From NCBI GenBank assembly GCA_965277015.1, contig OZ255705.1:2902475-2966474 (forward strand): a DNA stretch of 64,000 nt. Direction: 5' to 3'. The position numbers were made by a program, and so were the translations under genes. Shown piece by piece: positions 4,481 through 38,118 of this stretch (the stretch's first letter is position 1; the number at the start of each line of letters is the position of its first letter). Source of the stretch: Henriciella sp. (GTDB taxonomy: Bacteria; Pseudomonadota; Alphaproteobacteria; Caulobacterales; Hyphomonadaceae). The notes beneath the pieces are model-generated. The model was given only the letters and a program-made list of their open reading frames with translations. It was not told the DNA's origin and did not search any database.

Positions 4481-5284
4481 TTAAACTGCGGATTGGCGGA
4501 GGGATTCCAGAGCTTGATCGAGGATTTCCTGGCTCGCTGCGCATACGAGTTGCCCGCCAGGTTTCGCTGGAGCCCCGTGCCAATCACAAGCCAAGCCACC
4601 GGCACCGCGAACGACAGGAATGAGCGCTGCCGCATCATACGGTGCGAGGCCAGATTCCGCGACCAGATCGATCGAGCCGCCAGCGAGACGGGCATAAGCA
4701 TAGGCATCTAATCCGTAACGTATGATCCGCGCGGTATCTCGCAGCGTTGTCCATGAGGTCTGTTCGGCCTGGGTCAGGATAAATGGATCGGTCGTGGAAA
4801 TCACTGCGTGGCTCAAATCATGACAGTCAGAGACCTGCAAACGCGTCTCAGATCCGGCAGCCCGCAAATAGGACCCTTCTGGCGATCCGACATAACGTTC
4901 GTCCAGAACCGGTTGATCGATTATCCCAACAATTGCGTTGCCGTGACGATCAACGAGACCAATCAGCGTCGTCCATACAGGCAGGCCGGCAACAAAAGCG
5001 CGCGTGCCGTCAATCGGGTCCAGGACCCAGGTCCAGCCGGTTGTGCCATCCTGACGGCCATATTCTTCACCCAGGATCGCATCTTGCGGACGCTGTGTGC
5101 GCAAAACATCGCGCATCGCGCGCTCGGCAGCTTTGTCAGCCTCTGTCACGGGATCGAAATCGCCGTCACTTTGCTTGTTTTCAACGCTGGTCAGGGCCCT
5201 GAAATGAGGCATGATTGCTGCGCGCGCAGCATCAGCCATCGCATGTGCGACGGCAATGGCATCAAAGTCTGGATTGGGTTGCAT
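4481..5284 (-). CDS. hisN: Inositol monophosphatase family protein, probable histidinol-phosphate phosphatase
   Basis: PVTEADKAAE, ILGEEYG, WVLDPIDGTRAF, GLAPYD motifs; GLPVWTTLIGL resembles the HisN subgroup. The IMPase family is secure, the HisN function less so. Confidence 0.8.
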   Translation of the reverse strand: MQPNPDFDAIAVAHAMADAARAAIMPHFRALTSVENKQSDGDFDPVTEADKAAERAMRDVLRTQRPQDAILGEEYGRQDGTTGWTWVLDPIDGTRAFVAGLPVWTTLIGLVDRHGNAIVGIIDQPVLDERYVGSPEGSYLRAAGSETRLQVSDCHDLSHAVISTTDPFILTQAEQTSWTTLRDTARIIRYGLDAYAYARLAGGSIDLVAESGLAPYDAAALIPVVRGAGGLACDWHGAPAKPGGQLVCAASQEILDQALESLRQSAV

Positions 5285-5316
5285 CGCTCGCGCTTAACCG
5301 CGAGACGCTGCTTTGG

Positions 5317-5715
5317 TCAAGCTGCGCCCGACCCGGACGTCTCGGATTCAAGCGCTTTTGCGAGTTCCAGCAGACGTCGACGAGGCCTTTCGCCCAAGCG
5401 ATAATACGCACGCACCAGTTCCAAGGTCTCTTTCTGGCTGAGAATATCTGCATCGAGGCGTTCGGCATCATTTGCCGCCATGCCCTGCATGTCTTCCGTT
5501 TCGAGGCCGTCAAAGAAATACTGAACAGAGACGTTCAGAGCTCTTGAGAGGTCATATAGACGTGAAGAGGTGACGCGGTTGGCTCCGCATTCGTATTTTT
5601 GAATCTGCTGAAACCTTACTCCCACCATACTGGCAAGGTCCTGTTGAGTCATGCCTAGCAAACGTCGTCGACGTCGAAGGCGCTTCCCTACATGCAGATC
5701 TGTTCTGTCCGTCAT
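5317..5715 (-). CDS. XRE-family HTH transcriptional regulator
   Basis: VGKRLRRRRRLLGMTQQDLASMVGVRFQQIQKYECGANRV, a typical alphaproteobacterial HTH_3 signature. Confidence 0.9.
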   Translation of the reverse strand: MTDRTDLHVGKRLRRRRRLLGMTQQDLASMVGVRFQQIQKYECGANRVTSSRLYDLSRALNVSVQYFFDGLETEDMQGMAANDAERLDADILSQKETLELVRAYYRLGERPRRRLLELAKALESETSGSGAA

Positions 5716-6022: not shown

Positions 6023-6902
6023 ACGAATTCTCTCGTAGGGCGAAATCCACGATGTCTTCGATGATCCGCGAGACCTGGTCACGTGTGCGTCCAAAGCCTG
6101 CAGATTTCTCAACAGTCATTTCATCCATGTATAGTGCGCGATTGATTTCAATCTGTAAGACGTGAACACCGCGGCGCGGTCGGCCATATCGTCTTGTTGT
6201 ATAGCCGCCCGCATATGGCGCGTTGCGGGTGACGCTCAGGCCTTCCTGGCGACACCGGCGTTCAACGACTGATGTCAGCCGCGCTGAACAGCTCGAACCG
6301 AACCGATCCCCGAGGACAATGTCGGGCATGCTAGAGCGGCCAGGCTGACGAGACGGCATTGAATGACAGTCAATGACAATGATGTCAGACCAATTCGATT
6401 TCAGGCTCTCAATTTCGGTTTGAAGGGCTTGATGGTAGCGATCATAGACCTGATCGAGCCGAAACAGACCCTCTTTGCGCGTCATCTGATTGGCATATAT
6501 CTCGCGCCCACTGGCGCCGACCCGTGGGAAACAGCCAAGTCCGGCTTTCACGCGGGCACTTGGCATCCCAGCCATGCGCGGGACACCGTCTTCAAACATA
6601 CTGGCATCAAGTTCTCGCGCGTCGCGGTTCAAATCGACAAAGCCGCGCGCGTAATTGGCGCGCAAAAGCTGTGTCCCTTGCGTGGTCGCCTGCTCATAGA
6701 GTTCATCCACAAAAGCGTCTTCGGTGCGTTGCAAGTCTGCCAATGGAACGCAAAGCAGGGTTTGCATGGAGTCCGGATAGACGGTTCCACTATGCGGTGA
6801 TGCAAATATTACCGGCGCTCGCACGGAGTCCGCGCGCAACAGCGTATAAGCTTCAACCGCGTGTTCAATTGGTTCAGGGGAGACATCAAAGACAGTCCGC
6901 AT
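6021..6902 (-). CDS. N-formylglutamate amidohydrolase
   Basis: SPHSG, EDAFVD, RGFVDLNR, DCHSMPS, DIVLGDRFGSSC, NAPYAGGYTT, LQIEINRALYMDE motifs. Confidence 0.93.
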   Translation of the reverse strand: MRTVFDVSPEPIEHAVEAYTLLRADSVRAPVIFASPHSGTVYPDSMQTLLCVPLADLQRTEDAFVDELYEQATTQGTQLLRANYARGFVDLNRDARELDASMFEDGVPRMAGMPSARVKAGLGCFPRVGASGREIYANQMTRKEGLFRLDQVYDRYHQALQTEIESLKSNWSDIIVIDCHSMPSRQPGRSSMPDIVLGDRFGSSCSARLTSVVERRCRQEGLSVTRNAPYAGGYTTRRYGRPRRGVHVLQIEINRALYMDEMTVEKSAGFGRTRDQVSRIIEDIVDFALRENS

Positions 6903-7436: not shown

Positions 7437-7503
7437 TATCGGTTGCAGTTCAGGCTTGACTTGAAAGCGCCAAAAGGGGATTACCCCTCACTCTGAAACG
7501 GAT

Positions 7504-7578
7504 GGTCGATTAGCTCAGTGGTAGAGCACTGCATTGACATTGCAGGGGTCACAAGTTCGAACCTTGTATCGACCACCA
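7504..7578 (+). tRNA. tRNA-Val (GAC)
   Basis: Acceptor GGTCGAT/ATCGACC, D arm TAGCTCAGTGGTAGAGC, anticodon arm CTGCA-TTGACAT-TGCAG, GTTCGAAC T loop, encoded CCA. Confidence 0.97.
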
Positions 7579-7584
7579 TTTTCT
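7534..7584 (+). repeat. attL-type copy: tRNA-Val 3' half (51 bp)
   Basis: ttgacattgcaggggtcacaagttcgaaccttgtatcgaccaccattttct is identical to 14986-15036 and matches 35062-35113 with 3 mismatches. Confidence 0.95.
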
Positions 7585-7637
7585 CTGAATTATTACAGAC
7601 ACTTGTGCCGCCCGGCGAATTCCCAGCCTCATCGGAC

Positions 7638-7657
7638 TGGCAACGTTGTGGCAACGT
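7638..7657 (+). repeat. Direct-repeat pair TGGCAACGT-TG-TGGCAACGT (candidate tyrosine-integrase arm sites)
   Basis: Same pair recurs at 9767, 9963 (one mismatch, TC spacer) and 14861, each near an att core. Confidence 0.8.
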
Positions 7658-7914
7658 TAGTGGGTGCTCATCTGGAGAAATAAGCTTAGTTGTTCTGGGC
7701 ATTCAATCACGAGTCGATTCTCTTCTTTGTTTACATACCGAGGTGGTTTCGGAAGCGTATTCGAGTCGACATCGAATTGGTTCACTGCTTCTTTTAAGCA
7801 GGGGTCGATTCTCGTCCGTTCCTCCATGGGCATCGCGCGAAGCTTCTTACGCCAAGCACGTCGCCGCATGTGCCGGACATGCCTCCTCTTATCGAGACTT
7901 GAGCATCTCTTCAT
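7657..7914 (-). CDS. Small basic hypothetical protein
   Basis: 85 aa, Arg/Lys-rich N-terminus, C-terminal EQLSLF; start codon and expression uncertain. Confidence 0.35.
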   Translation of the reverse strand: MKRCSSLDKRRHVRHMRRRAWRKKLRAMPMEERTRIDPCLKEAVNQFDVDSNTLPKPPRYVNKEENRLVIECPEQLSLFLQMSTH

Positions 7915-8180
7915 TGAGTGAAATTTGCCCCCGGGATTGATCTCAGCTAGCGATTGCCGCTGATGCAGACGGAATTACCAACCAAGACCAGTTTCACTTA
8001 GGCTGGGTTCCACTTTAGTTGTTTTTACTAATGCAATTTGCAACCGTCGCAAGTAAAAGGCGATTCGTTCTCTGGCGAAAATGTGTAGGTTAGCTCTCTC
8101 TTATTTGCACCGGACGTGCCCAACCTTCCTAGAGTTAGGGCCGTAGTTACTTGCCGCCTCGTTTTCACAATATTTGCGTG

Positions 8181-8266
8181 ACGTGCAAAACTCATGAAAT
8201 ATGCACGGTATTCAGCAACCCAGCATTCATCGACAATTGCGGGCGTGCATATTTCAGGTGCAAATA
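8181..8266. promoter_or_regulatory. Putative res site / promoter of the serine recombinase
   Basis: 13-bp inverted repeat TGAAATATGCACG (8195-8207) / CGTGCATATTTCA (8244-8256) plus further GTGCAAA half-sites just upstream of the resolvase. Confidence 0.55.
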
Positions 8267-8293
8267 TAATCGGATTCTGATACGCTTTTCGGT

Positions 8294-8839
8294 ATGAAAA
8301 TCGGATATGCGAGAGTTTCGACAATCGGCCAATCAATCGAACGCCAGATTTCAAATCTGCGGGCTGAGAAAGTTGATAAGATCTATCGAGAGAAAGCTTC
8401 GGGGAAATCGGTTCGAGGAAGACCCGAACTTGAAAAAGCCATTGATGCGCTCGGCACGGGCGATGTTCTCGTCATCGCCGAGTGGGACCGCGCTACTCGC
8501 TCAATGATGGACGGTATTACGATTATCTCTCGCGTGGCCGAACGCGAAGCACTTGTGAAAGTCCTGGACAAGCCATGGCTAGACTTAACAACCCCGATGG
8601 GGAAGGGCATCCTAGCGCTGCTGTCTGCTATGGCCGAGGATGAACGAGAGCGCATTTTGCGGCGCGCGAATGAAGGCCGGGAAATAGCCAAGGCGAATGG
8701 TGCCAAGTTTGGTCGACGGCCTAAGCTCACAGACCATCAGAGATCTCGTGCATTGGAACGTCTGGCTTCTGGTGAAAGCCAGGACGCCATTGCGGCGGAT
8801 TATAATGTGCACCGCTCTACGATCTCGCGACTGCAATAA
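8294..8839 (+). CDS. Small serine recombinase (resolvase/invertase family) with C-terminal HTH
   Basis: MKIGYARVST catalytic Ser motif, EKASG..RPEL, DRATRS, ERERILRRANEG, FGRRPKL, HTH ..IAADYNVHRSTISR. Confidence 0.95.
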   Translation: MKIGYARVSTIGQSIERQISNLRAEKVDKIYREKASGKSVRGRPELEKAIDALGTGDVLVIAEWDRATRSMMDGITIISRVAEREALVKVLDKPWLDLTTPMGKGILALLSAMAEDERERILRRANEGREIAKANGAKFGRRPKLTDHQRSRALERLASGESQDAIAADYNVHRSTISRLQ

Positions 8840-8925
8840 GAAAACGTCCTAGCAGTGTATTGCACAAACGAAGAAAATATGTGTCGTTTGGCTTTAGGTG
8901 GATCAGTTCTTGGGTGGGGGTGGTA

Positions 8926-9606
8926 ATGACCGAAACTGTAAGCACGCATAGACTGTCAGAAAACAATATAGAATTTTGGCGGCGCCAAATACCTGGCGTA
9001 GTAGATTACGCGTACTCAGACTTAGGAAGTTTGGTCGATTCGGAAATACAGGTTGGCGACGACCTCACGGCCCTCGTCATCAATGACGAACTGGTCTCTT
9101 TCTTCACCACACGTTTTCTGCAAGTGGAGCAAGAGTGTGCGTTCGAGCGATATGATACATACGTTTACTTTGGCCTTTCAGGTACTGTCCAAACGTCAAC
9201 CCACAAAGGCCATCGAACAATCTGTGTAATAACCCGGCTAAACGAGCTGCGAGAAATTTCGAGGGCGCGCGTCGCTGCGATCGCATCCACCGCTTTCCCG
9301 CCAACCTATTTCCTGGCGGAAGCTACGTGTGATGGTATATTTCCGAGCAGATCCGGTGAGATCGGAGAGGCTGAATACGAAGTTTTCACCCAACTATTGA
9401 ACCAGATCCCATGCGCGCATGGAGCCCCTAAAAAAGGGGAGTACGTTTTACAAGGAGTGTCATCCGCTCGATACACACAAGACCAAGTAGAGTTATCAAT
9501 GAAATCCATAGATCGCCTTCCCGTGCTCGCGGCTTCGGGGTTGAAGGAATCCGATGGAGATAGGATGTTCTTCATGTGTGAATTGACAGGAAAACGTTCA
9601 GAATAG
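8926..9606 (+). CDS. Hypothetical protein, possibly GNAT-like fold
   Basis: 226 aa from the ATG at 8926; LVINDELVSFF followed by YVYFGLSGT..THKGH resembles the GNAT beta3-beta4-loop arrangement, weakly. Confidence 0.5.
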   Translation: MTETVSTHRLSENNIEFWRRQIPGVVDYAYSDLGSLVDSEIQVGDDLTALVINDELVSFFTTRFLQVEQECAFERYDTYVYFGLSGTVQTSTHKGHRTICVITRLNELREISRARVAAIASTAFPPTYFLAEATCDGIFPSRSGEIGEAEYEVFTQLLNQIPCAHGAPKKGEYVLQGVSSARYTQDQVELSMKSIDRLPVLAASGLKESDGDRMFFMCELTGKRSE

Positions 9607-9766
9607 GGTGGGAGCGTATAGTCTGTCTTATCCGTGGTTGTTGAGATCTAGGACGAACGCTCGCTGTTCCGTTTAGGGTGTACCTTAATATGGACGCCGA
9701 CCTTAGAATGGTTGGGTTCGACCTCGTGCCAATGCCCATCTCCACGATGAATTCCGAAAATGGGAC

Positions 9767-9899
9767 TGGCAACGTTGTGGCAACGTCGGGAGACTACGAT
9801 ATGTGTAAACTGGCAACGTTATGCTATGCTCGACTACGATACGCTACGTTAAACTACCGTAGTTACAGTGGTTTAGCCTTTTGCCTGAAGCTTGACATT
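9767..9899 (+). repeat. att arm block copy 1: TGGCAACGT x2, third site at +44, 10-bp CTACG repeats, core TTGACATT at +125
   Basis: Colinear without gaps to 14861-14993 (offset 5094 bp). Confidence 0.85.
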
Positions 9900-9962
9900 C
9901 CAAGCCAAGCTAGAATTAAATACAACAATTTCAAGCGCTTACTATTTTGAGTGCCGAAGGAG

Positions 9963-9982
9963 TGGCAACGCTCTGGCAACGT
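9963..9982 (+). repeat. Arm-type pair TGGCAACGC-TC-TGGCAACGT
   Basis: Same 11-bp period and orientation as the 7638 pair; 64 bp right of the 9892 core. Confidence 0.75.
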
Positions 9983-10264
9983 ACAATTGACCCCTGCAAC
10001 CGACGGAAAATGGGTCAAGAATTTTTGAGCCACTATCGCCCGTTCACTAATAGCTACGGGCGAAGGTAGAACCCAACCTTGGCAAGGTCCATCCAAGACC
10101 TAAGCAACTGAGTTTACAGGATATTTGTGGTACTTTGCGGCAAATATCGGAGGATGATGGAACTTATCAACCTTAATTCACGTTGCCACTTGACGAGATT
10201 GCGACTGGGGCAAATTTCCGCCTCCAGTTCCTACCTTTTCCATTTGTCCGTGGGACTGAGATAA

Positions 10265-11383
10265 CTAATTTAGAAATGGAGTTAGAAGTACGATTAACTC
10301 CGTTTGTCGTCGGCATTCGGTTTTCGCCAAAACCCGCTTGATGAGTGTTTGGGTTGTGTGTACGGAAACCGCTCGAGTCTTGTTGATCATTGGCAAAGAC
10401 GCGCCCTGCATCAAGAGTTGGGCAGTTTCTGCTTCAGCCCGCGTGAGCCCAAATGTCTCCTTCACAAGACTCATATTCAGCTTACGGGCTTTTCTGATGG
10501 GCTTGAGAATGAAGACCGCTGCTCCTGCCAGCTCTCCGGCAATCCCGACCCTATGAAATGGCATAATTGAAACGATATACTCAGGGCGGCCAAGATCATC
10601 CTTGGTTATAAAACTTCCACCAACGATATTTGAGCGTTTGCTGAGGGCTCTGTGTAGTTTAGCGGTGAATTCAGGGCGCCCAAGGAGAAGCTTCCTGTTA
10701 GAATCTAGCGTGACGCGCTTTTCGGATAAACATTCATCGAACGCCCTGTTGAATTCAACAACTGTAGTATCCGTTTTTAATATGGCTGCTGCATCGCCTT
10801 CGCCAGCAAAACTTAGCGCGTCGTCGGCTCGTCTCTTTTCTACGAGACGCGCAAGGTTAAATACTGGAGCGCAAACAGCCGCCGCGATCTCATGTCGTTT
10901 TGCTGCGTCATCATCAAATGCATCGTGCTCAAAGCGTCGATGCAATGCGACCCCTGCGGTAAGAGAAGCTGCATTAACTATTGGCACCGCAGAAAAGTGG
11001 CCTAGGCCAAGCGGCAAAATGAGCTCTTGGTACACTGCATCTTTTGCGATCTCATCACGCGTAATAAAGTCTCTATCACGGGTTGAGATCATCGGTCTCA
11101 TTCTTGGGATAGCTAGGACGCGAGGATTTATGTCCTGGAGTTCGGCCTCTAACTCCGCGAGCACTGGATCCATGTCCACAGAAAAGGTTGATTGCAGAAG
11201 TGTACGATTGCCGTCTGCGACCATTAAATGCCCTACATCCGCGTCACAGAAATCTGCGAATTGTTTCAAGGCGACTGGCATGATCTGTGGCTCAAAAACT
11301 GCTTCGACGAATAGTCTCTGCAGTTTCTCGAGTCTTCGGTCGCTTATCTCATTCAACATTATTGTTTGTGTACAATTATCCAC
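10265..11383 (-). CDS. LuxR-type HTH transcriptional regulator with N-terminal sensory (GAF/PAS-like) region
   Basis: C-terminal FGLTRAEAETAQLLMQGASLPMINKTRAVSVHTTQTLIKRVLAKTECRRQTELI; N-terminal region typical of the about 370 aa alphaproteobacterial subfamily. Confidence 0.85.
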   Translation of the reverse strand: MDNCTQTIMLNEISDRRLEKLQRLFVEAVFEPQIMPVALKQFADFCDADVGHLMVADGNRTLLQSTFSVDMDPVLAELEAELQDINPRVLAIPRMRPMISTRDRDFITRDEIAKDAVYQELILPLGLGHFSAVPIVNAASLTAGVALHRRFEHDAFDDDAAKRHEIAAAVCAPVFNLARLVEKRRADDALSFAGEGDAAAILKTDTTVVEFNRAFDECLSEKRVTLDSNRKLLLGRPEFTAKLHRALSKRSNIVGGSFITKDDLGRPEYIVSIMPFHRVGIAGELAGAAVFILKPIRKARKLNMSLVKETFGLTRAEAETAQLLMQGASLPMINKTRAVSVHTTQTLIKRVLAKTECRRQTELIVLLTPFLN

Positions 11384-11547
11384 CTAAGACGAGAGCGTTG
11401 AGCGGTTCGCAGCAATAAGTCAAATATCTTAGAATAAATTTCACTTGCGCGAACCACACAGAACGTCAATTTCCATTGTCTTATGCAGAGTAATAGAGCG
11501 TCAAAGAAGACGGAGATTTTGGCTGATGGTACCGTGGCGCTTGGCTA

Positions 11548-11892
11548 CTAACCGATAAATTTGTTCTTGGTAACTTCAATACGCGTCACTCCTCCACCGT
11601 TTACTGTCGCGCATCTGTAGCAAGAAGACTGTCTGACATCACGGGCCGCAAAACTCGAATTGCAGCCAGAATCAGTACTCCCATTGGCAAAGTGAATAGT
11701 CCAGCACAGCGCCACCGCATGGTTGTTCTGATTTTCGATTTTTAGATAGCCGCTTCCACCACTGCTATATTCCCAAGTGGAGAAGACAACATTGTTCTGA
11801 GTAAAGGATTTCTGATGTTTATCCTGAGCATGAGCGAAAGAAACGAACGCCAATCCAGCCAAAATTGTTAAAATACACACTCTTACTTTCAT
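11548..11892 (-). CDS. Small exported Cys-containing hypothetical protein
   Basis: Probable real start MKVRVCILTILAGLAFVSFAHA-Q (signal peptide), 114 aa, 4 Cys in the mature part; the longer ORF to 12630 overlaps a better gene on the other strand. Confidence 0.7.
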   Translation of the reverse strand: MKVRVCILTILAGLAFVSFAHAQDKHQKSFTQNNVVFSTWEYSSGGSGYLKIENQNNHAVALCWTIHFANGSTDSGCNSSFAARDVRQSSCYRCATVNGGGVTRIEVTKNKFIG

Positions 11893-12147
11893 TTTGAGAC
11901 TCCATTTGATTGTTTTGAGACGCGCCCCCCCACCCAGCCATGGAGCTGAGATAGATCCGTCTACAAACAAGGTTAATGGATCGGAGTTCCTAGTCGTCAC
12001 TAAACTTGGGTACGCCTCCGGCTCCCAACTAGTGTAAGAGAGCGATTCTGAGCATGCGCAAATCTGGTTACGCTTGAGAAAATGGCTGGGTGCAAAAATC
12101 GGTGGCTTCATGCTGGACTGGATCAAAAATACTGAAGGAACCGTCTC

Positions 12148-12786
12148 ATGGACATGAAAATCTTCGTTTCGCTTTTGAGTATGGCCATCGCACAGAACGT
12201 GACAGCAGAGACCCCGGTTTGGGATGATTATTGGGAACAACACCCCAAAGAAATGTTGTGTGGCACAGAAACTGTGCCATGGCCGGCGGATACAGATAGC
12301 CCATGGACTCAAATCATCATGAACTCTGATTACGGCAATTATACTCCCAAATCGATGGATGCTTTTGGCATGGAGAAACAAGTCTGGGCGGTAGACGCGC
12401 CGATTAGCCAAGAAATGTTCATCGTCTCGCCGGATGGCACCATCGAAATGTGGGCCCCAAACAACTTTTTCAAAAACCGCCCCAGAAAAATGGGAGTATG
12501 GAAAAAAGATGATGACGGACAGATTCACTTTCGAACCGAAAGCAATCCACAAGAGCATGAGTTTAATTGCAGGATTGTATTTTTGTACGAAACTAGCGGC
12601 GGGAACAATTTCTCCAAATTTGGTGATCAATGCGTTGCAGTCGCTTCGTGTGAAGAGTCAAAAAAACAAAACGGCAGCCCAGTAACTTGGTTACAGGATA
12701 CCGAGTTGAAACTTGGATTGATGGAACGAGTCGATGATGACGAAGAACCAAAAATCAACGAGGCATATATCGACTATCTTGACTAG
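12148..12786 (+). CDS. Exported hypothetical protein
   Basis: 212 aa, N-terminal hydrophobic signal-like segment, natural composition, GGAA upstream. Confidence 0.65.
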   Translation: MDMKIFVSLLSMAIAQNVTAETPVWDDYWEQHPKEMLCGTETVPWPADTDSPWTQIIMNSDYGNYTPKSMDAFGMEKQVWAVDAPISQEMFIVSPDGTIEMWAPNNFFKNRPRKMGVWKKDDDGQIHFRTESNPQEHEFNCRIVFLYETSGGNNFSKFGDQCVAVASCEESKKQNGSPVTWLQDTELKLGLMERVDDDEEPKINEAYIDYLD

Positions 12787-12847
12787 CACAATTGATGGCT
12801 GACGGGTGACGTATTGCCCCCCCGAACAATCATCATAATTTCAATTC

Positions 12848-13242
12848 TTGGATAAAACCGGAATAAGAAATTGCAGATACCGAACATACCTGTTCGAGCA
12901 TGAAGTCAGCAGGATCGAACAAACCGCTAATCGCGTTAGAGGATCTGCAGAATTGTACTTTGAGAGCGCTGAGGGGAAAGAACGCCTCATCAGAGCGGAT
13001 CTAGACTGTATTGAAGAAGCGCAAGCGACAGGAATGGCAGATCGTAGTTTGGTTTGCGCGCGGGGGCGCTCCGATCCAAAAGATCTTGCTGGGTGCACTT
13101 CTAACAATTCCGCTACTAAATCCAGGAATAATAAACGCTTCGAGAGAGCGATGGATTACATTGACACTCTCGAAGGCCAGGTAATACGCTCAACCTGCAA
13201 CGCGTCATGCACATCAGACAATGGTGCAGAAATTGATGACAT
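12848..13242 (+). pseudogene. Possible hypothetical gene truncated by the IS remnant
   Basis: About 130 codons of protein-like composition (TTG start) that run into the IS fragment at about 13243. Confidence 0.3.
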
Positions 13243-13745
13243 TTTATCGAGGGTCGGCGGAATCTATAATTCTCGCATGCAGGATACTTCATGTCTCGTC
13301 GTCCCCATCCGCGATCATGCTTTTTTGAGTAGGCGGTTCTCAAGAAGCGTCTCGGCTAGCGCTTCCTTCAGGTCGCGGGCCTCACGCTTCAAGCCAGTGA
13401 CTTCGCCGGACGTTGCCTGGCGCTGGGTGTTACCAGACAGGCGCTTCTTGCCTGCCTCCATGAACTCCTTCGACCAGTTGTAATACAGGCTCTCAGCGAT
13501 CCCTTCACGGCGGCAAAGCTCAGAGATGGAGCTCTCTCCTCGCAAGCCGTCCAGTACAATGCGGATCTTTTCTTCGGTAGAGAACTTCCGCCGTGTCTTA
13601 CGTTTAATCTAGCCAATGTGTTTATCAGCCGATCCATTCGGCCCTGTTCTCGATCTCATCTTCAATCCTCTCAAGGATAACGATGAGCCAAAACACTCCC
13701 TTAGCAAAACTAACTAAACTGTCTTATAGGCCGTGACGGGGAACA
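13243..13745 (-). mobile_element. IS3-family remnant (left end, orfA with in-frame stop, first codons of orfB)
   Basis: Terminus TGTTCCCCGTCACGG at 13745; orfA RKTRRKFSTEEKIRIVLDGLRGESSISELCRREGIAESLYYNWSKEFMEAGKKRL interrupted by TAG near its start; A6G slippery tract at 13320-13326; orfB start MKYPACE then truncated. Confidence 0.88.
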
Positions 13746-13804
13746 GGCAAGCGACCCGTTTACCGCGTAGCTCCCGCGGAAAAATGATTTGACATACAAT
13801 TTGA

Positions 13805-14497
13805 TTACTTTCCCGTTTCCTTCGTCAAACGGCATTGTGCGTTTCCTCGCGTACCGAACGGCTTGGTCGCTCCGTAACCGCCCAGACAGGCTGCGATACG
13901 AATCGACGAGTCGCTTGGCATACTGTATTGATTTGTTTTCCTCTCACCGGCGTTCAGCGTGACGTTGTGAGTGTAATATTTTCCAGCCTCTGAGTTGCAT
14001 GCTTTCCTAGATTTCGATGATCCAGTTTGACACCAATAAACATGCACAATCGCCCCGCAATTGTTTATCATTTCATATTGAGGTTCGTTATCATAAGACA
14101 CGCGAACCTTATTGAGTGCAACGCAACCGTTCGCGTTAAGTCGCTCAATATGAGAATTAGTTTCACCGCTTCTAGCCCCGTTAGACTGATATGAGTTGCC
14201 CCTTTCCGGTGTTGAAGAGCGACCGAACTGTTGCTCGTTAACACCATAATTTGAGGAGGAGTTCTGAGAGGGGCTTCCGCCAGAATTTTGAATCGCAGCA
14301 TTCAAGTTGTATCTGGTCTGCGTTGCGTTGAAATCTTCGAAAGTGGCGTGGCAAGTGAACTGCAAGGGGTTTGTATTTGGGACCATTGCCATGTAGGGCT
14401 GAGACGCTGGACAAGTTTGAATTTGGGCGTGAGTTAATGGCGCCGCGATCGCAAAAATAGATGCTGTTGCCGCTGTAAATGAAATTTGTCGAAGCAT
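13805..14497 (-). CDS. Exported Cys-rich hypothetical protein
   Basis: Start MLRQISFTAATASIFAIAAPLTHA-Q with GGAGA RBS; 230 aa, Ser/Asn/Gly linker, 8 Cys. Confidence 0.75.
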   Translation of the reverse strand: MLRQISFTAATASIFAIAAPLTHAQIQTCPASQPYMAMVPNTNPLQFTCHATFEDFNATQTRYNLNAAIQNSGGSPSQNSSSNYGVNEQQFGRSSTPERGNSYQSNGARSGETNSHIERLNANGCVALNKVRVSYDNEPQYEMINNCGAIVHVYWCQTGSSKSRKACNSEAGKYYTHNVTLNAGERKTNQYSMPSDSSIRIAACLGGYGATKPFGTRGNAQCRLTKETGK

Positions 14498-14860
14498 TTT
14501 TGTCTCTCCATCTGTCCCGTCGTCAATTTTGTCATGTTGATATTGATGCTGCGTCCCCTGTTTTGGTGACGGCCGGTCAATTTTTCCTCTAATATGCAAA
14601 ATACTGCGTGCAAAAGGGGAATGAATATCTGAATGAAGGATCATTCGTATTTGAATGGCGACTCAAACAAACGATGTATTGGTTTGGCCTTGTGTTCAGC
14701 GGAAGGCCACTTTTCGGCAAGTAGCCAGGGGCCACGAACGCCAGCTCAGCCGTGGAAAACGGCGGAGAAAACTGATTCATGATCCCGCGTATCACTCGAA
14801 ATTGGACAATTGAAGCTTTAGTCCCCTTTGAACTCGCACGTAAGAGCAGACATTAGGGCC

Positions 14861-14985
14861 TGGCAACGTTGTGGCAACGTCGGAACGCTACCGAGCCTGT
14901 AAAATGGCAACGTTAAACTACGTTAGACTACGATCCGATACGTTAAAATCCTATAATTACAGAGGTTTTGCTTTTACCCTAAAGC
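14861..14985 (+). repeat. att arm block copy 2
   Basis: TGGCAACGT at 14861, 14872, 14905; 10-bp repeats from 14915; core TTGAC at 14986, same spacing as the 9767 block. Confidence 0.85.
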
Positions 14986-15036
14986 TTGACATTGCAGGGG
15001 TCACAAGTTCGAACCTTGTATCGACCACCATTTTCT
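14986..15036 (+). repeat. attR-type copy of the tRNA-Val 3' half
   Basis: 51/51 identical to 7534-7584. Confidence 0.95.
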
Positions 15037-15192
15037 TCTGATTGACAATCGCTTGCGACGCTTATCGATTTTTCATTATTCCTGGACTGGCAAAGCAATG
15101 TCACTCTTGCCTTGAAAGCGGTTTTTCTTGCTTAAAAAGAGGGACACGGTGGCTGGGCGAATCCAAGCATTCTGTCCCTCTCTCGAAAAGAC

Positions 15193-20097: not shown

Positions 20098-20308
20098 TCC
20101 GACCTTGATGACTTCTTACAAAAAACGCTCGCTGACAAAATTTGTATGTTGGCTTTAGCTTACTCCGTCGTAATGTGCGGTGAGTTTAGGGAAATAAGGG
20201 GCGGAAACAACACTGACCGTTGTTTTAAGATCGGCGTTACTTCCTTTGAAAGCATAAGATGAATTCGGAGTTTGGACAACGAGTCCAACTCCAAACCGGA
20301 GATTGGGA

Positions 20309-21859
20309 ATGCAGACGATAGTAAAGATGAGCCTGTTGGTGATTGGCATTATTGCATCGGCGCACTTTGGCTTAGCACAGGAGGAGGACGTACAGGTTGC
20401 GTCGCCCGCGGAACAACACGCTTCAACGTCTTTTATGGTTTCGGTCGCGAATAAGGCGGATAACGCCTCTCGAACCGCCTCTGGTTTTATTGTCAATTCG
20501 CAGGGCTATGTTCTCACGTCCGCCTCGCTCATCGGTCGAGATGATGACGATACCTGGTTTGTTCAAGTTTCTGGAACCGTTGGCGTCATTCCGGCGACGG
20601 TTATATCGCTCAACGAAGATCTCGGGGTTGCGCTTCTCAAGACCAATGACGTTGAATTGCCGAATGTCGCAACATTCGCCTCTTTCGACCTGGAAAAGGG
20701 CGCGCCCGTCCAATCTTTGTCGATGGATGGCGACGGCACCGTCGCTGTCTCACCGGGTTCAATTGGCGATGCAGCCCTTCCAACCCGGAATAATCCACCG
20801 GTACAATATTTCGTTCATAACGCGCTTGTCACAGCAGAGGGTTATGGCGGAGCACTCTTGAATCGATGCGGCGAAGTCGTCGGGATAAACGTCACAAATC
20901 CGAACCTGTCGCGGAGAAGTGCGCGTCGTTTGCCGGCGCTCGATCAAAGTGTTTATTCACTAACGCTCGATCCGACGGCACAATTTTTGTTTGCGAGCGA
21001 CATCGATCTGAGTGTTGCACCTGGCCGATGCCTGAGTGCTGAAGAGGAAACAATTGAAGCCGTCTCAGTGACCAAGTCGACCGAAGAAGAGCTCGGTGAG
21101 GCGCAGCGCAAGCTCGACGAGCTTGAGGTGGCGCGACAGGAAGCCGAAGCCGAGCGGCAGGAACGACAAGACGAGGCTGACCGTCTTCGTGCAGAAGCCG
21201 ATCGATTGAAACAAGATAATGAAGCGTCCGAGGCGGAAATAGACGACGCAGATGCGGCAGCTGCAGAAGCCGAATCGCTCGCGGAACAAGCGTCCTTGAA
21301 GCTGAGCGACTTGCAGACCGAAATCGACACTCTTGATGGTCGCATAAAGGACCTCGAAAACCGACTCAAGGACGCGCAGCGGCGTCTGTATTATGTCCTG
21401 GCCGGCTCAGCAGCATTGCTAATTCTGCTTGGTCTGGGGCTCAGCATTATCATTCGCAACCGCGGATCAAAACTCGTCAACGTGTCGGCTGATTTGGATG
21501 CCGCGCATGAGAAGCTCGCGGAAACGTTTCCCGACGTTGAGTGCCGGGGCAAAGACGGCCAAAACGCGCCTCACGCTTTCCGGGTTTCTGGCGCTGCCCT
21601 GGTTCGTTCTCCGGAGGGATTGGTCATCGGTCGCCAGCCGGCGAGCGCCGATATCGTTCTAAATCATCCCGAGGTTTCTCGTGACCATGCGCGTGTGCAA
21701 ATCAAGGACGGCGAGCTCACGATCGAAGACCTCGGCTCTACCAATGGTACATTCGTCGATGGTGTGAAGCTCGAAAAGGGCAATCCGAGGCGATTGCAAG
21801 ACGGCAGTGAATTGAAGCTCGGTCAAATCACGCTCACTGCTAAATATATCGGAGCATAA
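20309..21859 (+). CDS. Membrane-anchored trypsin-like pseudoprotease with coiled-coil stalk and cytoplasmic FHA domain
   Basis: GGAGA RBS and ATG 20309; signal peptide; Trypsin_2-like fold with TSASLI / DLGVALLK / EGYGGAL in place of the catalytic motifs; about 100-aa coiled coil; TM; FHA (IGR, SRDH, STNGT). Confidence 0.85.
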   Translation: MQTIVKMSLLVIGIIASAHFGLAQEEDVQVASPAEQHASTSFMVSVANKADNASRTASGFIVNSQGYVLTSASLIGRDDDDTWFVQVSGTVGVIPATVISLNEDLGVALLKTNDVELPNVATFASFDLEKGAPVQSLSMDGDGTVAVSPGSIGDAALPTRNNPPVQYFVHNALVTAEGYGGALLNRCGEVVGINVTNPNLSRRSARRLPALDQSVYSLTLDPTAQFLFASDIDLSVAPGRCLSAEEETIEAVSVTKSTEEELGEAQRKLDELEVARQEAEAERQERQDEADRLRAEADRLKQDNEASEAEIDDADAAAAEAESLAEQASLKLSDLQTEIDTLDGRIKDLENRLKDAQRRLYYVLAGSAALLILLGLGLSIIIRNRGSKLVNVSADLDAAHEKLAETFPDVECRGKDGQNAPHAFRVSGAALVRSPEGLVIGRQPASADIVLNHPEVSRDHARVQIKDGELTIEDLGSTNGTFVDGVKLEKGNPRRLQDGSELKLGQITLTAKYIGA

Positions 21860-21863
21860 TGCG

Positions 21864-23336
21864 ATGTTTAAAAAGATCCTCATCTCAATCGCTATTGTCG
21901 CTCTTGCTGCAGGTCCTACAGCGCACGCTGACGCGGTCTCTTCGATCTCCAGCTGGTTCGGCGGGAGCCCAGAAGATCGGATCCCTCCCGATGACATTGA
22001 AAAATTGTCCAAGAGCGTCGTTAAAATCCTGACTTACACAGAGACGAGGGGCGAACTGAAAGGAGGCGGAACAGGCTCAGGAGTCATTCTGGACGATGAA
22101 GGCCACATCCTCACCAATTGGCACGTGGTCACCACGTCGATCGACCCAGTCGTTTCCGGCGTTGGTATCAAGCTCAACTACGAACTCGGTGAGGAGATCT
22201 GGGTCGCGACAGCAGATTCGTTGTCGCAGGTGCGTGCGGAACTGCTTTGGGTGGACGCTGAATTGGACTTGGCGCTGATCAAAGCCGTGCGGCCAATTGG
22301 TGAACCCGCCACCATTTCGACGCAGATGCCGGTTAGTGAGCGGAAAGTGACAGCGATGGGGTTTCCGGGCGCCGCCGAAGATTACAAAATTCGCCGTCAA
22401 ATTATCGAAGGCGGCCCGGACTCGTATGAGGAGTTGCGCGATGCACGTTTGAGCGAAATTGCTCTGACCCCGACGACTGGGATTTACGGCAATCTCCAAA
22501 ATCGACCATGGAACGAATTGGTCGCTAACAGCAAGCGCGTCAAAATTATTCAACACGACGCCGCTGTCAGTCACGGCAATAGTGGCGGACCATTATTCGA
22601 TGGTTGCGGCCGCGTGATTGGGATCAATACCCAGGTCACAATACGAGATTCGAACATTATTGCTGGTGTTTCCCTTGCATCGAGCATTGTAGAGGCGGTG
22701 CCCTATCTGCGTGATCAAGGGGTCAACTTTAATTTGCTAGACAATGTCTGCGAAACTTGGGTGCCGCCACAAGCCTTGGACACCTGGGATCTAATGTTGA
22801 TTTTGGCGACGCTGAGCTCGCTGGTCCTGGCAGCCGTCGCCCTCTCGCGGCGTCCTGTCAGACAAGCGATTTCAACCGGCGTGTCTCAATTAGTGAGTTC
22901 CGGACCAGCCAACTCTCGCCCATCCGAAACAGGCACCAACCAAAATCGCTATAAGCCTCGTCATAGTTCACCGCCAGGACCGCGGGCCAGCCAAGTCGGT
23001 CAAGTGCGAGTGATTTTGTCGGGAATCGCACAATCAAATGGTCACATTATCCGCATCGAGGTGGAGCCAAACGTGGCAAATAAGAGCGCCGATGGATTTG
23101 TCATCGGGCGGCAGCCGGAGCTTTGTCACCACGCGCTGGCTGACCCGATGGTTTCAAAACGGCAAGCTCGGTTTTTCTGGGACGCCTCGAAACTGATGCT
23201 GGAGGATTTAAACTCCACCAACCCAACCGTTGTGAACGGCGAAGAGTTGAAACCCTTTCAGCCACATTCCATCAAAACCGGGGACCGTGTTTTGATAGGT
23301 GATGTTGAACTTAAAGTGACCATGGCTCGAAACTAA
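21864..23336 (+). CDS. Membrane-anchored trypsin-like serine protease with cytoplasmic FHA domain
   Basis: Signal peptide; GTGSG, TNWHVV, LDLALIK, GNSGGPL intact triad; TM LMLILATLSSLVLAAVAL; FHA (IGR, SKRQ, STNPT). Confidence 0.9.
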   Translation: MFKKILISIAIVALAAGPTAHADAVSSISSWFGGSPEDRIPPDDIEKLSKSVVKILTYTETRGELKGGGTGSGVILDDEGHILTNWHVVTTSIDPVVSGVGIKLNYELGEEIWVATADSLSQVRAELLWVDAELDLALIKAVRPIGEPATISTQMPVSERKVTAMGFPGAAEDYKIRRQIIEGGPDSYEELRDARLSEIALTPTTGIYGNLQNRPWNELVANSKRVKIIQHDAAVSHGNSGGPLFDGCGRVIGINTQVTIRDSNIIAGVSLASSIVEAVPYLRDQGVNFNLLDNVCETWVPPQALDTWDLMLILATLSSLVLAAVALSRRPVRQAISTGVSQLVSSGPANSRPSETGTNQNRYKPRHSSPPGPRASQVGQVRVILSGIAQSNGHIIRIEVEPNVANKSADGFVIGRQPELCHHALADPMVSKRQARFFWDASKLMLEDLNSTNPTVVNGEELKPFQPHSIKTGDRVLIGDVELKVTMARN

Positions 23337-23371
23337 GCCCCCGTGAGACAAAACAAGCAGGATTTGCAGAT

Positions 23372-23626
23372 ATGAAACTCAAAAGACTCGGTCGCAGCTC
23401 ATTTAATGAGATCTCAGTTCAAGACCCGACGGTTTCTAGACGACACGCGGAAATCGTATTGCTGCCCGATGGCCGATTGTTCGTCACAGATTGTATGAGC
23501 ACGGGAGGCACCTTTGTTGAAATCAACGGCCGGTGGGAGCCGATTCGACAGGATTATGTGAACGCAGGTCAACAACTCAAATTTGGCGGCGTCGTCATGT
23601 CGACCGACCAACTGACACGCCGTTGA
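23372..23626 (+). CDS. Stand-alone FHA domain protein
   Basis: 84 aa; LGRS, VSRRHA, DCMSTGGTFV. Confidence 0.85.
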   Translation: MKLKRLGRSSFNEISVQDPTVSRRHAEIVLLPDGRLFVTDCMSTGGTFVEINGRWEPIRQDYVNAGQQLKFGGVVMSTDQLTRR

Positions 23627-23654
23627 TCAACGAATATTAGGAAAGGATACGAAA

Positions 23655-24341
23655 ATGCCAGTAGAGCATGATAAAGATGGAAACATCATCGAAACACCTG
23701 TCACAGACGTGCAGATCGGTAAAACCCAACGGACCCTTAGCGGGTCGACAGGGGCCGGAGAACCAGCAACCGAGGCCACGGATGTGTTTGGGCAAAAAAC
23801 CCAGGTTGTTGGCGCACCCCCGCTACAATCCTCCGAAAAGACAGCGCACGCTGACGAACCGTCGAAAACCGGAAGACGCGATTCTGCTCAAACCGGCGGA
23901 GCCTCGAAGCAACCAGCAACTGCATCACGCACTTCGCTCGTGGGAGGCCTTCCCGCAGATGAAGACGGCTCTGCTGGGCTGGCACAAAATGATGATCCAG
24001 TTGTTGGCTGGTTGGTCGTTGAGAACGGACCTGGTAGAGGGTCGGCTGTGCAAATCGGGACGGGCATGAACGCTGTCGGGCGCGGCTCGGGCCAACGCAT
24101 CAGTTTGAACTTTGGCGATAATGCCATTTCATCCGAGAAGCATTTTTTCGTGTCATACGACCCACGATCTAGCGAGTTCGCGGTCCACCGAGGTGACGGT
24201 ACGAACCTGACTTATTTGAATCAGCAGCCAATTTATGGGTCTGAGTCCCTTCAAAACATGGCGCAAATCGAGGTTGGCCAAACGACTTTGCGCTTTGTTG
24301 CGCTGTGCGGTGAAGAGTTTAGCTGGGGAGCGCAAGACTAA
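23655..24341 (+). CDS. FHA domain protein with Thr-rich disordered N-terminus
   Basis: C-terminal PVVGWLVV..GPGRG, VGRG, ISSEKH, GTNLTYLN; first about 110 aa low-complexity and Thr-rich. Confidence 0.88.
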   Translation: MPVEHDKDGNIIETPVTDVQIGKTQRTLSGSTGAGEPATEATDVFGQKTQVVGAPPLQSSEKTAHADEPSKTGRRDSAQTGGASKQPATASRTSLVGGLPADEDGSAGLAQNDDPVVGWLVVENGPGRGSAVQIGTGMNAVGRGSGQRISLNFGDNAISSEKHFFVSYDPRSSEFAVHRGDGTNLTYLNQQPIYGSESLQNMAQIEVGQTTLRFVALCGEEFSWGAQD

Positions 24342-24345
24342 GCGT

Positions 24346-25683
24346 ATGAAAGACTCCGAAACACCCCAATTGTTCCTGAAAGACCGCGTCGCCGGCGACC
24401 AGTGGATTGGTCAACGCGAACGCCAGGAAGATAATTTTCTTGTTATCGACCTGCGCGACGATGGTCATAACGAAGACGATGCTGTTCTTTGCATCTTAGC
24501 TGACGGCATGGGCGGTGCAGTAGGGGGATCGATCGCAAGCAAGATTGCGGTCGATACGTTTGCTGATGCTTATTTAAGCGCACCAAAGTCTCAATCGCCA
24601 GGCGAGCGATTGTCTGCTGCCTTAAGTGAGGTTACGTCCGCACTGCAGCAAAGAATCTCCGTCGAGCCCAGCCTGAAAGGCATGGGGTGTACATTGGTTG
24701 CCGCATTGATTGAACAGGATTCAGTGCGCTGGATCAGCGTTGGCGACAGCCCATTTTGGCTCCATCGCAACAATAGTTTGACGCAGCTGAACAAAGATCA
24801 TTCAATGAAACCGGTGCTTGATGCCCTGGTCGAAAAAGGTGAACTGACCAGAGACGAGGCGGATCGGGACGGTCGGAGAAATGCGCTCCGCTCGGCCATT
24901 GATGGAAATGAACCCCAACTGATTGATCTACAAGATAGTGGATATCAGCTGCAGCCGGGCGACGTCTTGATTTTGGCCAGCGATGGCTTGGAGACGCTTA
25001 AGGTCAAGCAGATAGAGAAAATCCTCGATCAACATCGCTATTCCTCTGTGATCGAGCGCGTTGAGAAGCTGCTTTTGGCAACGTCTAAGCAGAACGACCC
25101 GTACCAAGATAACACAACGGTCATTTTGATGGACGCTGTGATGTCTGAAAAAGGTATGAGAGCGATTGCCAATCCGACGCGCCGAGGTGACGGAATTTCC
25201 GTGCCGGCTTCGACTGTTCGATTGAGGGAAGCAACAAAGGCTCCAAGCGAGTCCCGGAAACCAATGCAATCGCCGTCCGGTAAATCGAGTCTGATTGTGT
25301 TCGTGCTTGCGAGTCTTCTATTCATCGCCTTCTTATTGCTGTTATACATAAGGTTTGGCGTCGGGAATGAAACGCAAGATACTTCGCCCGATCCCCAAAT
25401 ACATCCGAATGATACCCAGTCGCCTGAAAGCGACCTTGATAGCTCGAAACTGGGTCGCTCTCCGTTCGTTGAAGAAGAAGCTGGTGATGAAACAAGCGAC
25501 GCGGAAGCCAGAGACGAAAGCTTCGTTGAAGATCCGACTGAACCGCCTGAAAACCCAGATGCACCAGACCCAAATATAGAGGTCATTCCGGACAATGAAA
25601 GCGGCGGTGAAGGGCAAGGCGCCAGGGCCGACGGCATCGAGGAAGGTACAGAGTTAGACTCTGCAAGGGGCACTGATCAATGA
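24346..25683 (+). CDS. PP2C-family Ser/Thr phosphatase with TM segment and acidic periplasmic tail
   Basis: RERQED, ADGMGG, GCT, VGDS, DHS, SDGL, DNTT motifs; TM LIVFVLASLLFIAFLLLLY; ATG 24346 lies 4 nt after the upstream stop. Confidence 0.93.
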   Translation: MKDSETPQLFLKDRVAGDQWIGQRERQEDNFLVIDLRDDGHNEDDAVLCILADGMGGAVGGSIASKIAVDTFADAYLSAPKSQSPGERLSAALSEVTSALQQRISVEPSLKGMGCTLVAALIEQDSVRWISVGDSPFWLHRNNSLTQLNKDHSMKPVLDALVEKGELTRDEADRDGRRNALRSAIDGNEPQLIDLQDSGYQLQPGDVLILASDGLETLKVKQIEKILDQHRYSSVIERVEKLLLATSKQNDPYQDNTTVILMDAVMSEKGMRAIANPTRRGDGISVPASTVRLREATKAPSESRKPMQSPSGKSSLIVFVLASLLFIAFLLLLYIRFGVGNETQDTSPDPQIHPNDTQSPESDLDSSKLGRSPFVEEEAGDETSDAEARDESFVEDPTEPPENPDAPDPNIEVIPDNESGGEGQGARADGIEEGTELDSARGTDQ

Positions 25684-27653: not shown

Positions 27654-27697
27654 CCATACCAACACTTCAAATAATCGACCAAACCGAGGGACAAACA

Positions 27698-28552: not shown

Positions 28553-28561
28553 GAGCAGATT

Positions 28562-34669: not shown

Positions 34670-35061
34670 GCCATCTTGCTCGCGACCTTTATGCCGCCTA
34701 ATGGGTTGGAGGGGGGAGGTGAACGCCGCTACGAACCCACCGTCGATCCTAATAAATCGGTTGGGCCAGTCAGATTAGGCAGGTCAGAGGCGGTTCCCAC
34801 TGCACGCGAATGCCGGGGCGACGTTCGAGGCGATTTTAAGAAATCAACTATCCAAGACTGACAGCCGGCTGACACTTAACATTGATTATCCATAGGCATG
34901 AGCCGCTGCTGGCGGTGCCACCGCCATGCCAAATGGCCGATCAGGGGCTCGAAATGGTGTCACGCAAAATAAGCATGTTCTGGGGTCGCACTGAATTGTC
35001 GTGACCTGTTGTGGCAGATTATGACCCTGAAAAACCTATAATTTTTTGAACTTCGGCTTGG

Positions 35062-35113
35062 TTGACATTACAGGGGTCTCAAGTTCGAACCTTGTATCGG
35101 CCACCATTTTCTC
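35062..35113 (+). repeat. Degenerate attR-type copy of the tRNA-Val 3' half
   Basis: 49/52 identical to 7534-7585. Confidence 0.9.
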
Positions 35114-38117: not shown

Positions 38118-38118
38118 A

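Follow-up and report, generated by a model that had tools for sequence, protein, structure and literature searches.

A tandem array of integrase-less units at the tRNA-Val gene of a Henriciella genome, probably produced by accretion and decay of integrative mobilizable elements

We analyzed a 64,000-nucleotide stretch of a Henriciella sp. genome (contig OZ255705.1, positions 2,902,475 to 2,966,474; hereafter the window, in whose numbering coordinates are given) in which several units of foreign DNA follow a tRNA-Val gene. In our judgment, the region from 7534 to 35112 probably (at roughly 70%) arose by tandem accretion and consists of three degenerate integrative mobilizable elements (IMEs) that belong to one family and later lost their integrase. 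The units, referred to as A, B, and C, are bounded by attachment (att) sites with a distinctive arrangement of arm and core sequences. This reading is carried by that architecture, its conservation beside cognate integrases in related bacteria, the absence of such an integrase here, an integrase stub retained in unit A, and a series of decaying integrases in relatives.

The integration target is the tRNA-Val(GAC) gene at 7504-7578 on the plus strand (ARAGORN; Rfam RF00005, 71.6 bits), which is present in a single copy in the 3.4-Mb single-contig genome and was the sole Rfam match over 7000-36000. The attL core and identity block at 7534-7584 extends over the anticodon loop (TTGACAT) and the 3′ half of the tRNA and includes a further 6 nt past the tRNA. 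It is repeated directly, with 51 of 51 positions identical, at 14986-15036 (plus strand), a displaced tRNA-Val 3′ half that represents the attR of B or of A and B together; the 3′ half of the tRNA gene itself is now supplied by the island. Such direct repeats are the mark of att sites of tRNA islands. The first-pass annotation had limited the array to 7534-15036. A third copy, the oldest displaced half, lies at 35062-35112 (plus strand; 48/51 versus the other copies, with one substitution that would disrupt the anticodon stem) and defines unit C, so that the order after tRNA-Val is A (to 9899), B (to 14993), and C (15037-35112). The GC content of the array is 0.46 to 0.53, compared with 0.556 genome-wide. 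In the related genome G071, a matching displaced fragment is located about 370 bp from the tRNA-Thr gene equivalent to that at window position 38119. Therefore, the entire segment of 7.5 to 35.1 kb is inserted DNA.

The att sites of the array are recognizable by pairs of the motif TGGCAACGY at 11-bp spacing. Pairs start at 7638, 9767, 9963, and 14861, and these four are the only ones on this pattern in the 3.4-Mb genome. Single sites are also in excess in the window (13 observed versus 1.5 expected; 13 or more in 0 of 100 shuffles). The blocks at 9762-9902 and 14856-14996, which end A and B, align without gaps and are identical at 111 of 141 positions (79%). In both, a third site follows at +44 and the core TTGACATT at +125, and all 30 mismatches lie outside the 35 site and core positions (P = 5.6e-5). 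A second repeat, CTACGWT, is phased at 10 bp and occurs at +27, +67, +77, and +87 in A and at +27, +57, +67, and +77 in B. The layout first described for this DNA, with paired sites opening A and B and end blocks carrying sites at +0, +11, and +44, phased repeats, and a core at +125, was confirmed and is beyond chance.

The P′ arm pair of A (TGGCAACGTTGTGGCAACGT; 7638-7657, plus strand) lies 104 nt from the core start, and its counterpart in relatives falls inside the 3′ end of the integrase open reading frame (ORF). The P arm of A (9762-9899, plus strand) has sites at 9767, 9778, and 9811 and CTACGWT repeats at 9794, 9834, 9844, and 9854, followed by the box TTACAGTGGTTTAGCC and the core TTGACATT at 9892-9899. 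That of B (14856-14993, plus strand) is built in the same manner, with sites at 14861, 14872, and 14905, CTACGWT repeats, a box, and the core at 14986-14993, and is 87% identical to the P arm/attR of G080. As a correction to the first-pass annotation, the first site of the left pair of B reads TGGCAACGC. Both A and B possess the P′ pair and a complete P arm that includes the core, whereas the arms of C are eroded. Judged by their sequence, the att ends of A and B appear intact and functional-looking.

We then compared the array with related genomes, using one genome per species; several of these are fragmented metagenome-assembled genomes (MAGs). The arm pair is present in several Hyphomonadaceae and related MAGs. 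On the P arm/attR side, it lies 114 to 125 nt upstream of a TTGACAT core that is followed by a tRNA-Val 3′ half, and on the P′ arm/attL side it lies 83 to 95 nt downstream of an intact tRNA-Val. Fourteen aligned P arms have a conserved order of elements: the pair and the third site come first, CTACGWT repeats follow, and a TTCAATGGCTTAGC-like box precedes the core by about 30 nt. Past the P′ pair, on the opposite strand, the relatives encode a tyrosine integrase of 394 to 400 aa (PF00589), and this cognate integrase adjoins the att end in G184, G100, G147, G008, and L027. This shared layout upholds the earlier proposal that the repeats have the arm and core architecture used by a tRNA-targeting tyrosine integrase. 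Sister subfamilies target tRNA-Gly(GCC) and have the arm repeats GGGCAACGA, ATGTACACGAG, and TGGAACTCGAA. The repeats therefore hold a fixed position relative to the core, are common to integrase-bearing relatives, and co-vary with the integrase subfamily, as expected of arm-type integrase sites. Across the subfamilies, the arm repeat varies (GGGCAACGT, GGGCAACGA, ATGTACACGAG, TGGAACTCGAA) and the layout is constant (G071:C6, G181, G052, G045, and G035). A metagenome scan with GGCAACGT...CTTGACATY gave, among the matches listed, mostly chance hits and one real locus, L234.

Complete elements of 24.5 kb were found in G184 and G100. The G184 element encodes the integrase, a MobA/VirD2 relaxase, a type IV secretion system (T4SS) coupling protein, ArdC, and an HTH_17 protein that is a candidate excisionase, and this gene set identifies it as an IME. 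G100 has a backbone of about 13 kb in common with G184, while G008 and G147 share with these two elements only the integrase and the att sites. Therefore, the module of integrase and att sites brackets varied cargo, as the first-pass annotation had anticipated for the arm block. We also observed that the integrase ORF crosses the P′ pair (...RPLTLPQRCQ...) and the antisense tRNA 3′ half and reaches its stop codon in the host-derived 5′ anticodon stem (L027:5322-6506, minus strand; L051:3-1142, plus strand; attL regions of G184, G100, G147, and G008). Since the ORF spans the att core, the C-terminal 40 or so residues must differ between the integrated and excised forms. We take this arrangement to be akin to the intP/attP overlap of Mx8.

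Of 262 genomes of the bacterial family, 58 encode a member of the integrase family, as do 24 of the 72 genomes of the genus. This integrase family is absent from the genome studied here at E <= 1e-30, and a genome-wide search for a tyrosine integrase beside the arms, which the first-pass annotation had called for, returned none of the cognate family. Over 7400-36000, a hidden Markov model (HMM) built from 38 family integrases matched only the tail at 7484-7702 (profile positions 350 to 397). No PF00589 match was obtained in the window, and no att end there is adjoined by a cognate integrase. Pfam and the family HMM likewise detected no integrase, relaxase, or coupling protein in 7580-35060. 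Searches of plasmids and with NCBIfam gave merely distant generic tyrosine recombinase matches, at no more than 29% identity. Elsewhere in the genome, PF00589 matched two full-length ORFs of about 300 aa, which from their length we read as Xer-like, one tRNA-Met-linked integrase, and fragments. The tRNA-Met-linked integrase (about 25.4 to 25.9 kb) was considered as a helper and rejected, as it has no tblastn match to the family and no such arm pairs. By tblastn, the sole remnant of the family integrase elsewhere is an 86-aa fragment at genome positions 5179-5436. Since the genome has no cognate integrase, the array is without a resident helper and is presumably immobile at present.

The 86-aa fragment belongs to a second relic of the family, located outside the window (C1:5179-6790), in which it carries an in-frame stop and is accompanied by a piece resembling a tRNA 3′ end. 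An inverted Gly-type P arm at about 6650-6790 (GGGCAACGT pair, box, and core TTGCCAA) is followed by non-tRNA DNA. This relic is situated about 20 kb from the tRNA-Met gene that has its own integrase.

Unit A retains the end of an integrase gene. The stub (7658-7699, minus strand) comprises the codons ...KLISPDEHP upstream of LTLPQRCQ and was matched by tblastn with 54% identity over 50 aa (E = 6e-8). It reads KLISPDEHP-LTLPQRCQ, where intact genes read ISPDELP or LEDRP-LTLPQRCQ; about 40 nt of coding sequence are kept beyond the pair, and the remainder of the integrase is gone from the unit. As A retains the final integrase codons, it probably descends from an integrase-bearing element. The claim that neither A nor B encodes an integrase is thus correct for a tyrosine integrase, but A does encode a serine resolvase and keeps this 3′ stub.

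Relatives display further stages of integrase loss. A 9.95-kb unit at tRNA-Val in G145 (G145:C34) has an integrase cut to aa 247 to 394 (148 aa), and the integrase of G130 is cut likewise. In G211 and G206, only about aa 352 to 394 are left, with transposase-like sequence just beyond in G211; these two genomes keep attL, and no recognizable P arm pair was found in them. Together, these loci form a deletion series from the full integrase through 148 aa to about 40 aa. At another locus, L049, two P arms lie 181 bp apart, the first without a core. We also noted that, over 9.86 kb, the units with the 5′-truncated integrase in the two species-level genomes G145 and G130 (L276, G145:C34; L277, G130:C265) are 99.76% identical. 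Of the two copies, one is directly at tRNA-Val and the other is behind a tRNA-less junction, and their right flanks differ. Both genomes are incomplete metagenome bins, and the identity reflects either a recent transfer of an integrase-defective unit or a binning artifact.

Unit C (15037-35061) is a 20-kb island remnant of low GC content with signaling-gene cargo. It has a P′ box at about 15042-15058 and a degenerate pair (TGGCAAAGCAATGTCACTCT, 15088-15107) at +102 nt from the core, compared with 104 nt in A. Its P arm (about 35000-35061) is eroded and internally deleted, and neither Pfam nor the family HMM revealed an integrase, relaxase, or coupling protein in it. C is an older member of the array with eroded arms. 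On this old island DNA, a tight co-directional cluster at 20303-29086 encodes two trypsin-like/FHA proteins, FHA proteins, a PP2C phosphatase, coiled-coil proteins, and a Ser/Thr kinase fused to an FGE-sulfatase domain.

The boundary between A and B differs from the outer ends of the array. The P arm of A (9762-9899) and the left end of B (9900-10000, plus strand) form an attP-like junction without a tRNA 3′ half. Past TTGACATT there is only a shortened, decayed spacer that resembles a tRNA half, followed by the box TTTCAAGCGCTTA, the P′ pair at 9963-9982, and TTGACCCCTGCAA. A junction 81% identical to this one occurs in G071 (L066:18395-18625; G071:C14, about 113.4 kb), within an island that has a DUF6538-type tyrosine integrase. 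The flanking DNA is unrelated on both sides; no tRNA was found near the junction and no further such arm pairs were found in the G071 genome. A third tRNA-less junction stands at the head of contig G130:C265, and the junctions of all three genomes share a similarly shortened spacer. In the window and in G071, TTGACCCCTGCAA is conserved directly after the B-type P′ pair (9985-10000; L066:18606-18622), and it is the reverse complement of TTGCAGGGGTCA, the tRNA-Val segment that follows the anticodon loop. The simplest account of the A|B junction is that a B-type element, with an attP lacking the tRNA-restoring segment, integrated into the resident attR of A; alternatively, A and B came as a composite. 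Accretion by either route has been documented (PMC5704250).

The cargo of A and that of B are unrelated, as had been stated. A encodes a small serine recombinase of the resolvase/invertase type (8294-8839, plus strand; PF00239, 1.3e-31) and a hypothetical protein of 226 aa (8926-9606, plus strand) with no Pfam or NCBIfam match and no identical protein on record. Homologues of the resolvase in G050, G069, and G072 are 85% identical and have no arms or tRNA nearby. The homology covers 8182-8839, that is, the gene and about 110 bp upstream, at 81 to 85% identity in these three other species of the genus, and the gene seems to move on its own. The resolvase was ruled out as the cognate recombinase, given the 85% identical copies elsewhere without TGGCAACGT sites or a tRNA nearby.

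B encodes a putative 372-aa regulator (10265-11383, minus strand) without a Pfam or NCBIfam family match, the C terminus of which we tentatively read as a LuxR-type helix-turn-helix. Its homologues, at no more than 46% identity, are scattered in the family outside islands of this kind. Three small proteins with signal-peptide-like N termini (11548-11892, minus strand; 12148-12786, plus strand; 13805-14497, minus strand) and an IS3-family OrfA pseudogene (about 13315-13660, minus strand; PF01527) complete the cargo; insertion sequence (IS) copies matching that of B are found in many genomes of the genus. B also contains an inverted attR relic of tRNA-Gly type (10050-10215, minus strand). It is made up of an arm site (10180-10188), a box, the core CCTTGCCAAGG (10079-10089), and a tRNA-Gly 3′ half that has suffered an internal deletion; G033:C52 contains a homologous relic with an intact half, and G028:C1 contains another homologue. 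With its IS3 remnant and the inverted tRNA-Gly-type relic, B is a mosaic. The A|B junction is enclosed by a 26-nt inverted repeat (9699-9724 and 10064-10089, 81% complementary). The right arm of this repeat corresponds to the Gly-type core relic, the left arm resembles a tRNA anticodon arm, and the repeat may be a further att relic just upstream of the P arm of A. Beyond the array, about 3 kb (35113-38118) separate the oldest tRNA-Val fragment from tRNA-Thr and contain a 452-aa ORF without a Pfam match and a GT2 glycosyltransferase gene. G071, with a gap of about 370 bp, lacks this segment, which may be an insertion that is older still.

According to our model, the family tyrosine integrase would recombine in the TTGACAT anticodon loop of tRNA-Val(GAC), as the layout suggests. 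Its P arm would consist of TGGCAACGT arm-type sites (a pair and a third site), the 10-bp-phased CTACGWT repeats, and a TTCAATGGCTTAGC-like box, and its P′ arm would consist of a box and a pair. Elements would have integrated successively, at the tRNA or at a resident att site, unless A and B came jointly as a composite, and every new arrival would have displaced one tRNA 3′ half. Integrase and transfer genes would then have been deleted, in part through IS activity. The present array would be frozen, and excision would be expected only with an integrase, and probably also an excisionase, from a related IME. Binding of proteins to the repeats, the succession of events, and mobilization in trans, whether past or present, are inferences from the sequence. 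Tandem arrays of this kind have precedents. Cis-mobilizable elements (CIMEs) lack integration and transfer genes but keep attL and attR, and tandems consist mostly of decayed elements (PMC5704250). Newer elements displace older ones from the tRNA, and fragmented integrases and partial tRNAs remain (bioRxiv 10.1101/2020.12.28.424599). Tandem islands at tRNA genes have also been catalogued, with 125 tandems in Islander, which requires an integrase for each member (PMC4383910). With complete arms and no integrase, relaxase, or coupling protein, A and B appear to match the definition of CIMEs. Descent by deletion is suggested for A by its stub, which B lacks, and by the series in relatives; no parent island with the same cargo was found.

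Several observations fit this reading poorly. No integrase stub whatever exists in B, and the family HMM found no integrase pseudogene body in A, B, or C, so that the loss is clean rather than eroded. No relative was found to have the cargo of A or B in a larger integrase-bearing island; in a DNA search of the genus with A and B, the sole matches were the resolvase gene and IS copies, all in unrelated surroundings, and none was a parent island. The A|B junction has intact arms on both sides yet no usable tRNA 3′ half. Simple serial integration into a working tRNA followed by neutral decay fails to predict such a junction, and neutral decay of a displaced half would not be expected to spare the arms beside it. 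Moreover, G071 (81% identity, different flanking DNA on each side) and G130 have junctions of this type as well. Three independent integrase losses, in three genomes, all end within about 22 to 32 nt of the P′ pair, a clustering tighter than expected of random deletion (n = 3). Finally, the 99.76% identity between the units of G145 and G130 is a hint that a unit with a defective integrase moved recently. Decay of once-autonomous islands, which the first-pass annotation had held as the alternative, nevertheless fits the data better than its preferred cassette system, although its strict form, a larger island holding the cargo of A or B, was found in no relative.

The best-surviving alternative concerns event order alone and is compatible with accretion and decay. 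A and B may have entered the tRNA in a single event as one 7.4-kb composite, in which 9762-10000 would be an older scar or a passenger attP from a previous host; we regard this as possible, at rather less than even odds. The outer repeats are identical at 51/51, the internal junction has only TTGACATT and a decayed, shortened half, and a homologous junction exists in another species (G071). Transfer of a whole composite after earlier accretion is documented (PMC5704250). However, integration of a B-type element into the resident attR of A yields the identical final structure, and identical outer repeats are likewise expected if the attP of A matched the host tRNA. The genus DNA search revealed no A+B composite elsewhere.

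A second alternative is that A and B are minimal integrase-less cassettes that propagate, moved in trans by a helper integrase and stacked at the tRNA or at resident att sites. This is the integron-like cassette system, served in trans, that the first-pass annotation had favored, and we consider it unlikely. A B-type attP lacking the tRNA-restoring half would need the attR of a resident island rather than the tRNA; with tRNA-Val(GAC) in single copy, it could not insert harmlessly. The arms of A and B are intact, with all site positions conserved despite 21% divergence elsewhere in the arms, and the integrase is cleanly absent. The tRNA-less junction in three genomes, with its similarly shortened spacer, suggests a lineage, and the G071 junction is an orphan with unrelated DNA on both sides. 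The integrase-truncated unit shared by G130 and G145 stands in different contexts, and the end points of integrase loss cluster just past the P′ pair. Each of these points has to be set against others. No cognate integrase is encoded in the genome, and neither the genus DNA search nor exact-protein look-ups of the cargo turned up a second copy of A or B. More than three true pairs occur in 1 of 262 genomes, the present one, and no other array of small units was seen. The A stub and the G145 truncation indicate integrase-bearing ancestors, C is eroded, and B is not streamlined but a patchwork that includes an IS remnant and an inverted Gly-type relic. G211 and G206 keep attL, and no recognizable P arm pair was found there, the conservation of the sites in A and B could predate integrase loss, and the G130 and G145 sequences come from incomplete bins. 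On the strength of the missing integrase, the stub, the deletion series, the mosaic structure of B, the erosion of C, and the lack of other arrays, we regard the cassette system as unsupported and favor accretion and decay, with mobilization in trans kept as a minority reading.

A related idea, to which we assign similarly low odds, is that some att modules, composed of a P arm, TTGACAT, a truncated tRNA half, a box, and a P′ pair, form a lineage unable to restore the tRNA. Such modules may depend throughout on a borrowed integrase and spread only within composites or by insertion into the attR of a resident island. If this were true, the tRNA-Val locus would be a cassette-capture platform made of lambda-type att sites, and B, the G071 orphan, and the G130 junction would belong to the lineage. 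Lastly, that the repeats are replication-origin iterons, regulator operators, or chance occurrences is hardly credible: 9-mers one helical turn apart with a second phased repeat do look iteron-like, but in many genomes the far ends of integrase-bearing islands carry the block at a fixed distance (+114 to +125) from the tRNA-Val anticodon loop, a pair lies about 83 to 104 nt past the core beside the integrase, the repeat sequence tracks the integrase subfamily, and shuffles and the genome-wide pair count exclude chance.

Among known systems, the closest is that of CIMEs and site-specific accretion, described for ICESt1/ICESt3 of Streptococcus thermophilus and for IME tandems (PMC5704250, citing Pavlovic 2004 and Bellanger 2011). 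As in CIMEs, the units are bounded by attL and attR, have lost integration and transfer genes, stand in tandem with related elements at one target, and would presumably depend on a related element's integrase for any movement. Unlike the CIMEs of ICESt1/ICESt3, they reside in an alphaproteobacterial host and the target is the tRNA-Val anticodon loop; all three units lack an integrase, there is no helper, and one internal junction is without its displaced target half. The array also resembles the tandem islands of Islander/TIGER (PMC4383910), which involve a tyrosine integrase, an attP centered on the anticodon loop, a regenerated tRNA, 3′ fragments that mark the ends, and tandem placement at one gene. 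However, since Islander requires an integrase for each member, the present array would be missed or merged. In Prochlorococcus tycheposons (bioRxiv 10.1101/2020.12.28.424599), insertion at a tRNA likewise pushes older elements inward and leaves degenerate elements, fragmented integrases, and partial tRNAs. There, in contrast, the integrase family and the host are unrelated to those studied here, where the relatives are relaxase-bearing IMEs and the arms are fully intact in two integrase-less units.

The array is reminiscent of an integron solely in its general picture, with several units that carry genes, recombination sites between them, and one entry point beside them. No IntI, attI, or Pc promoter was found and no tyrosine recombinase is present in the window; the head of the array is a tRNA gene. 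Unlike integrons, it has double-stranded lambda-type arm and core sites instead of folded attC sites, and its units contain two to five or more genes on both strands with their own signals, where integron cassettes are for the most part single ORFs without a promoter. In the P arm of a lambda-type site, the sites for excisionase (Xis) and the bending protein (IHF) usually lie between the P-arm sites and the core. The sites described here share with lambda-type attP the direct-repeat arm sites on both sides of the core and a second phased repeat between the P-arm sites and the core. In contrast to phage lambda, the elements are IMEs, and their arm sites are putative.

In our reading, the array is an ordinary, if clear, case of islands that accumulate and decay. 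Still, it would illustrate accretion and decay cleanly in a host outside the Firmicutes, the group for which CIMEs were defined, and island finders that require an integrase would miss this 27.6-kb foreign stack. The comparison with relatives also provides the full att architecture (pair, third site, phased repeat, box, and core) of an undescribed family of marine alphaproteobacterial IMEs, a substrate set for work on the integrase; the series of arm repeats among its subfamilies is a natural set for studies of arm-site specificity. The recurring tRNA-less junctions and the nearly identical truncated unit in two species offer a concrete handle on the mobilization of integrase-less units in trans.

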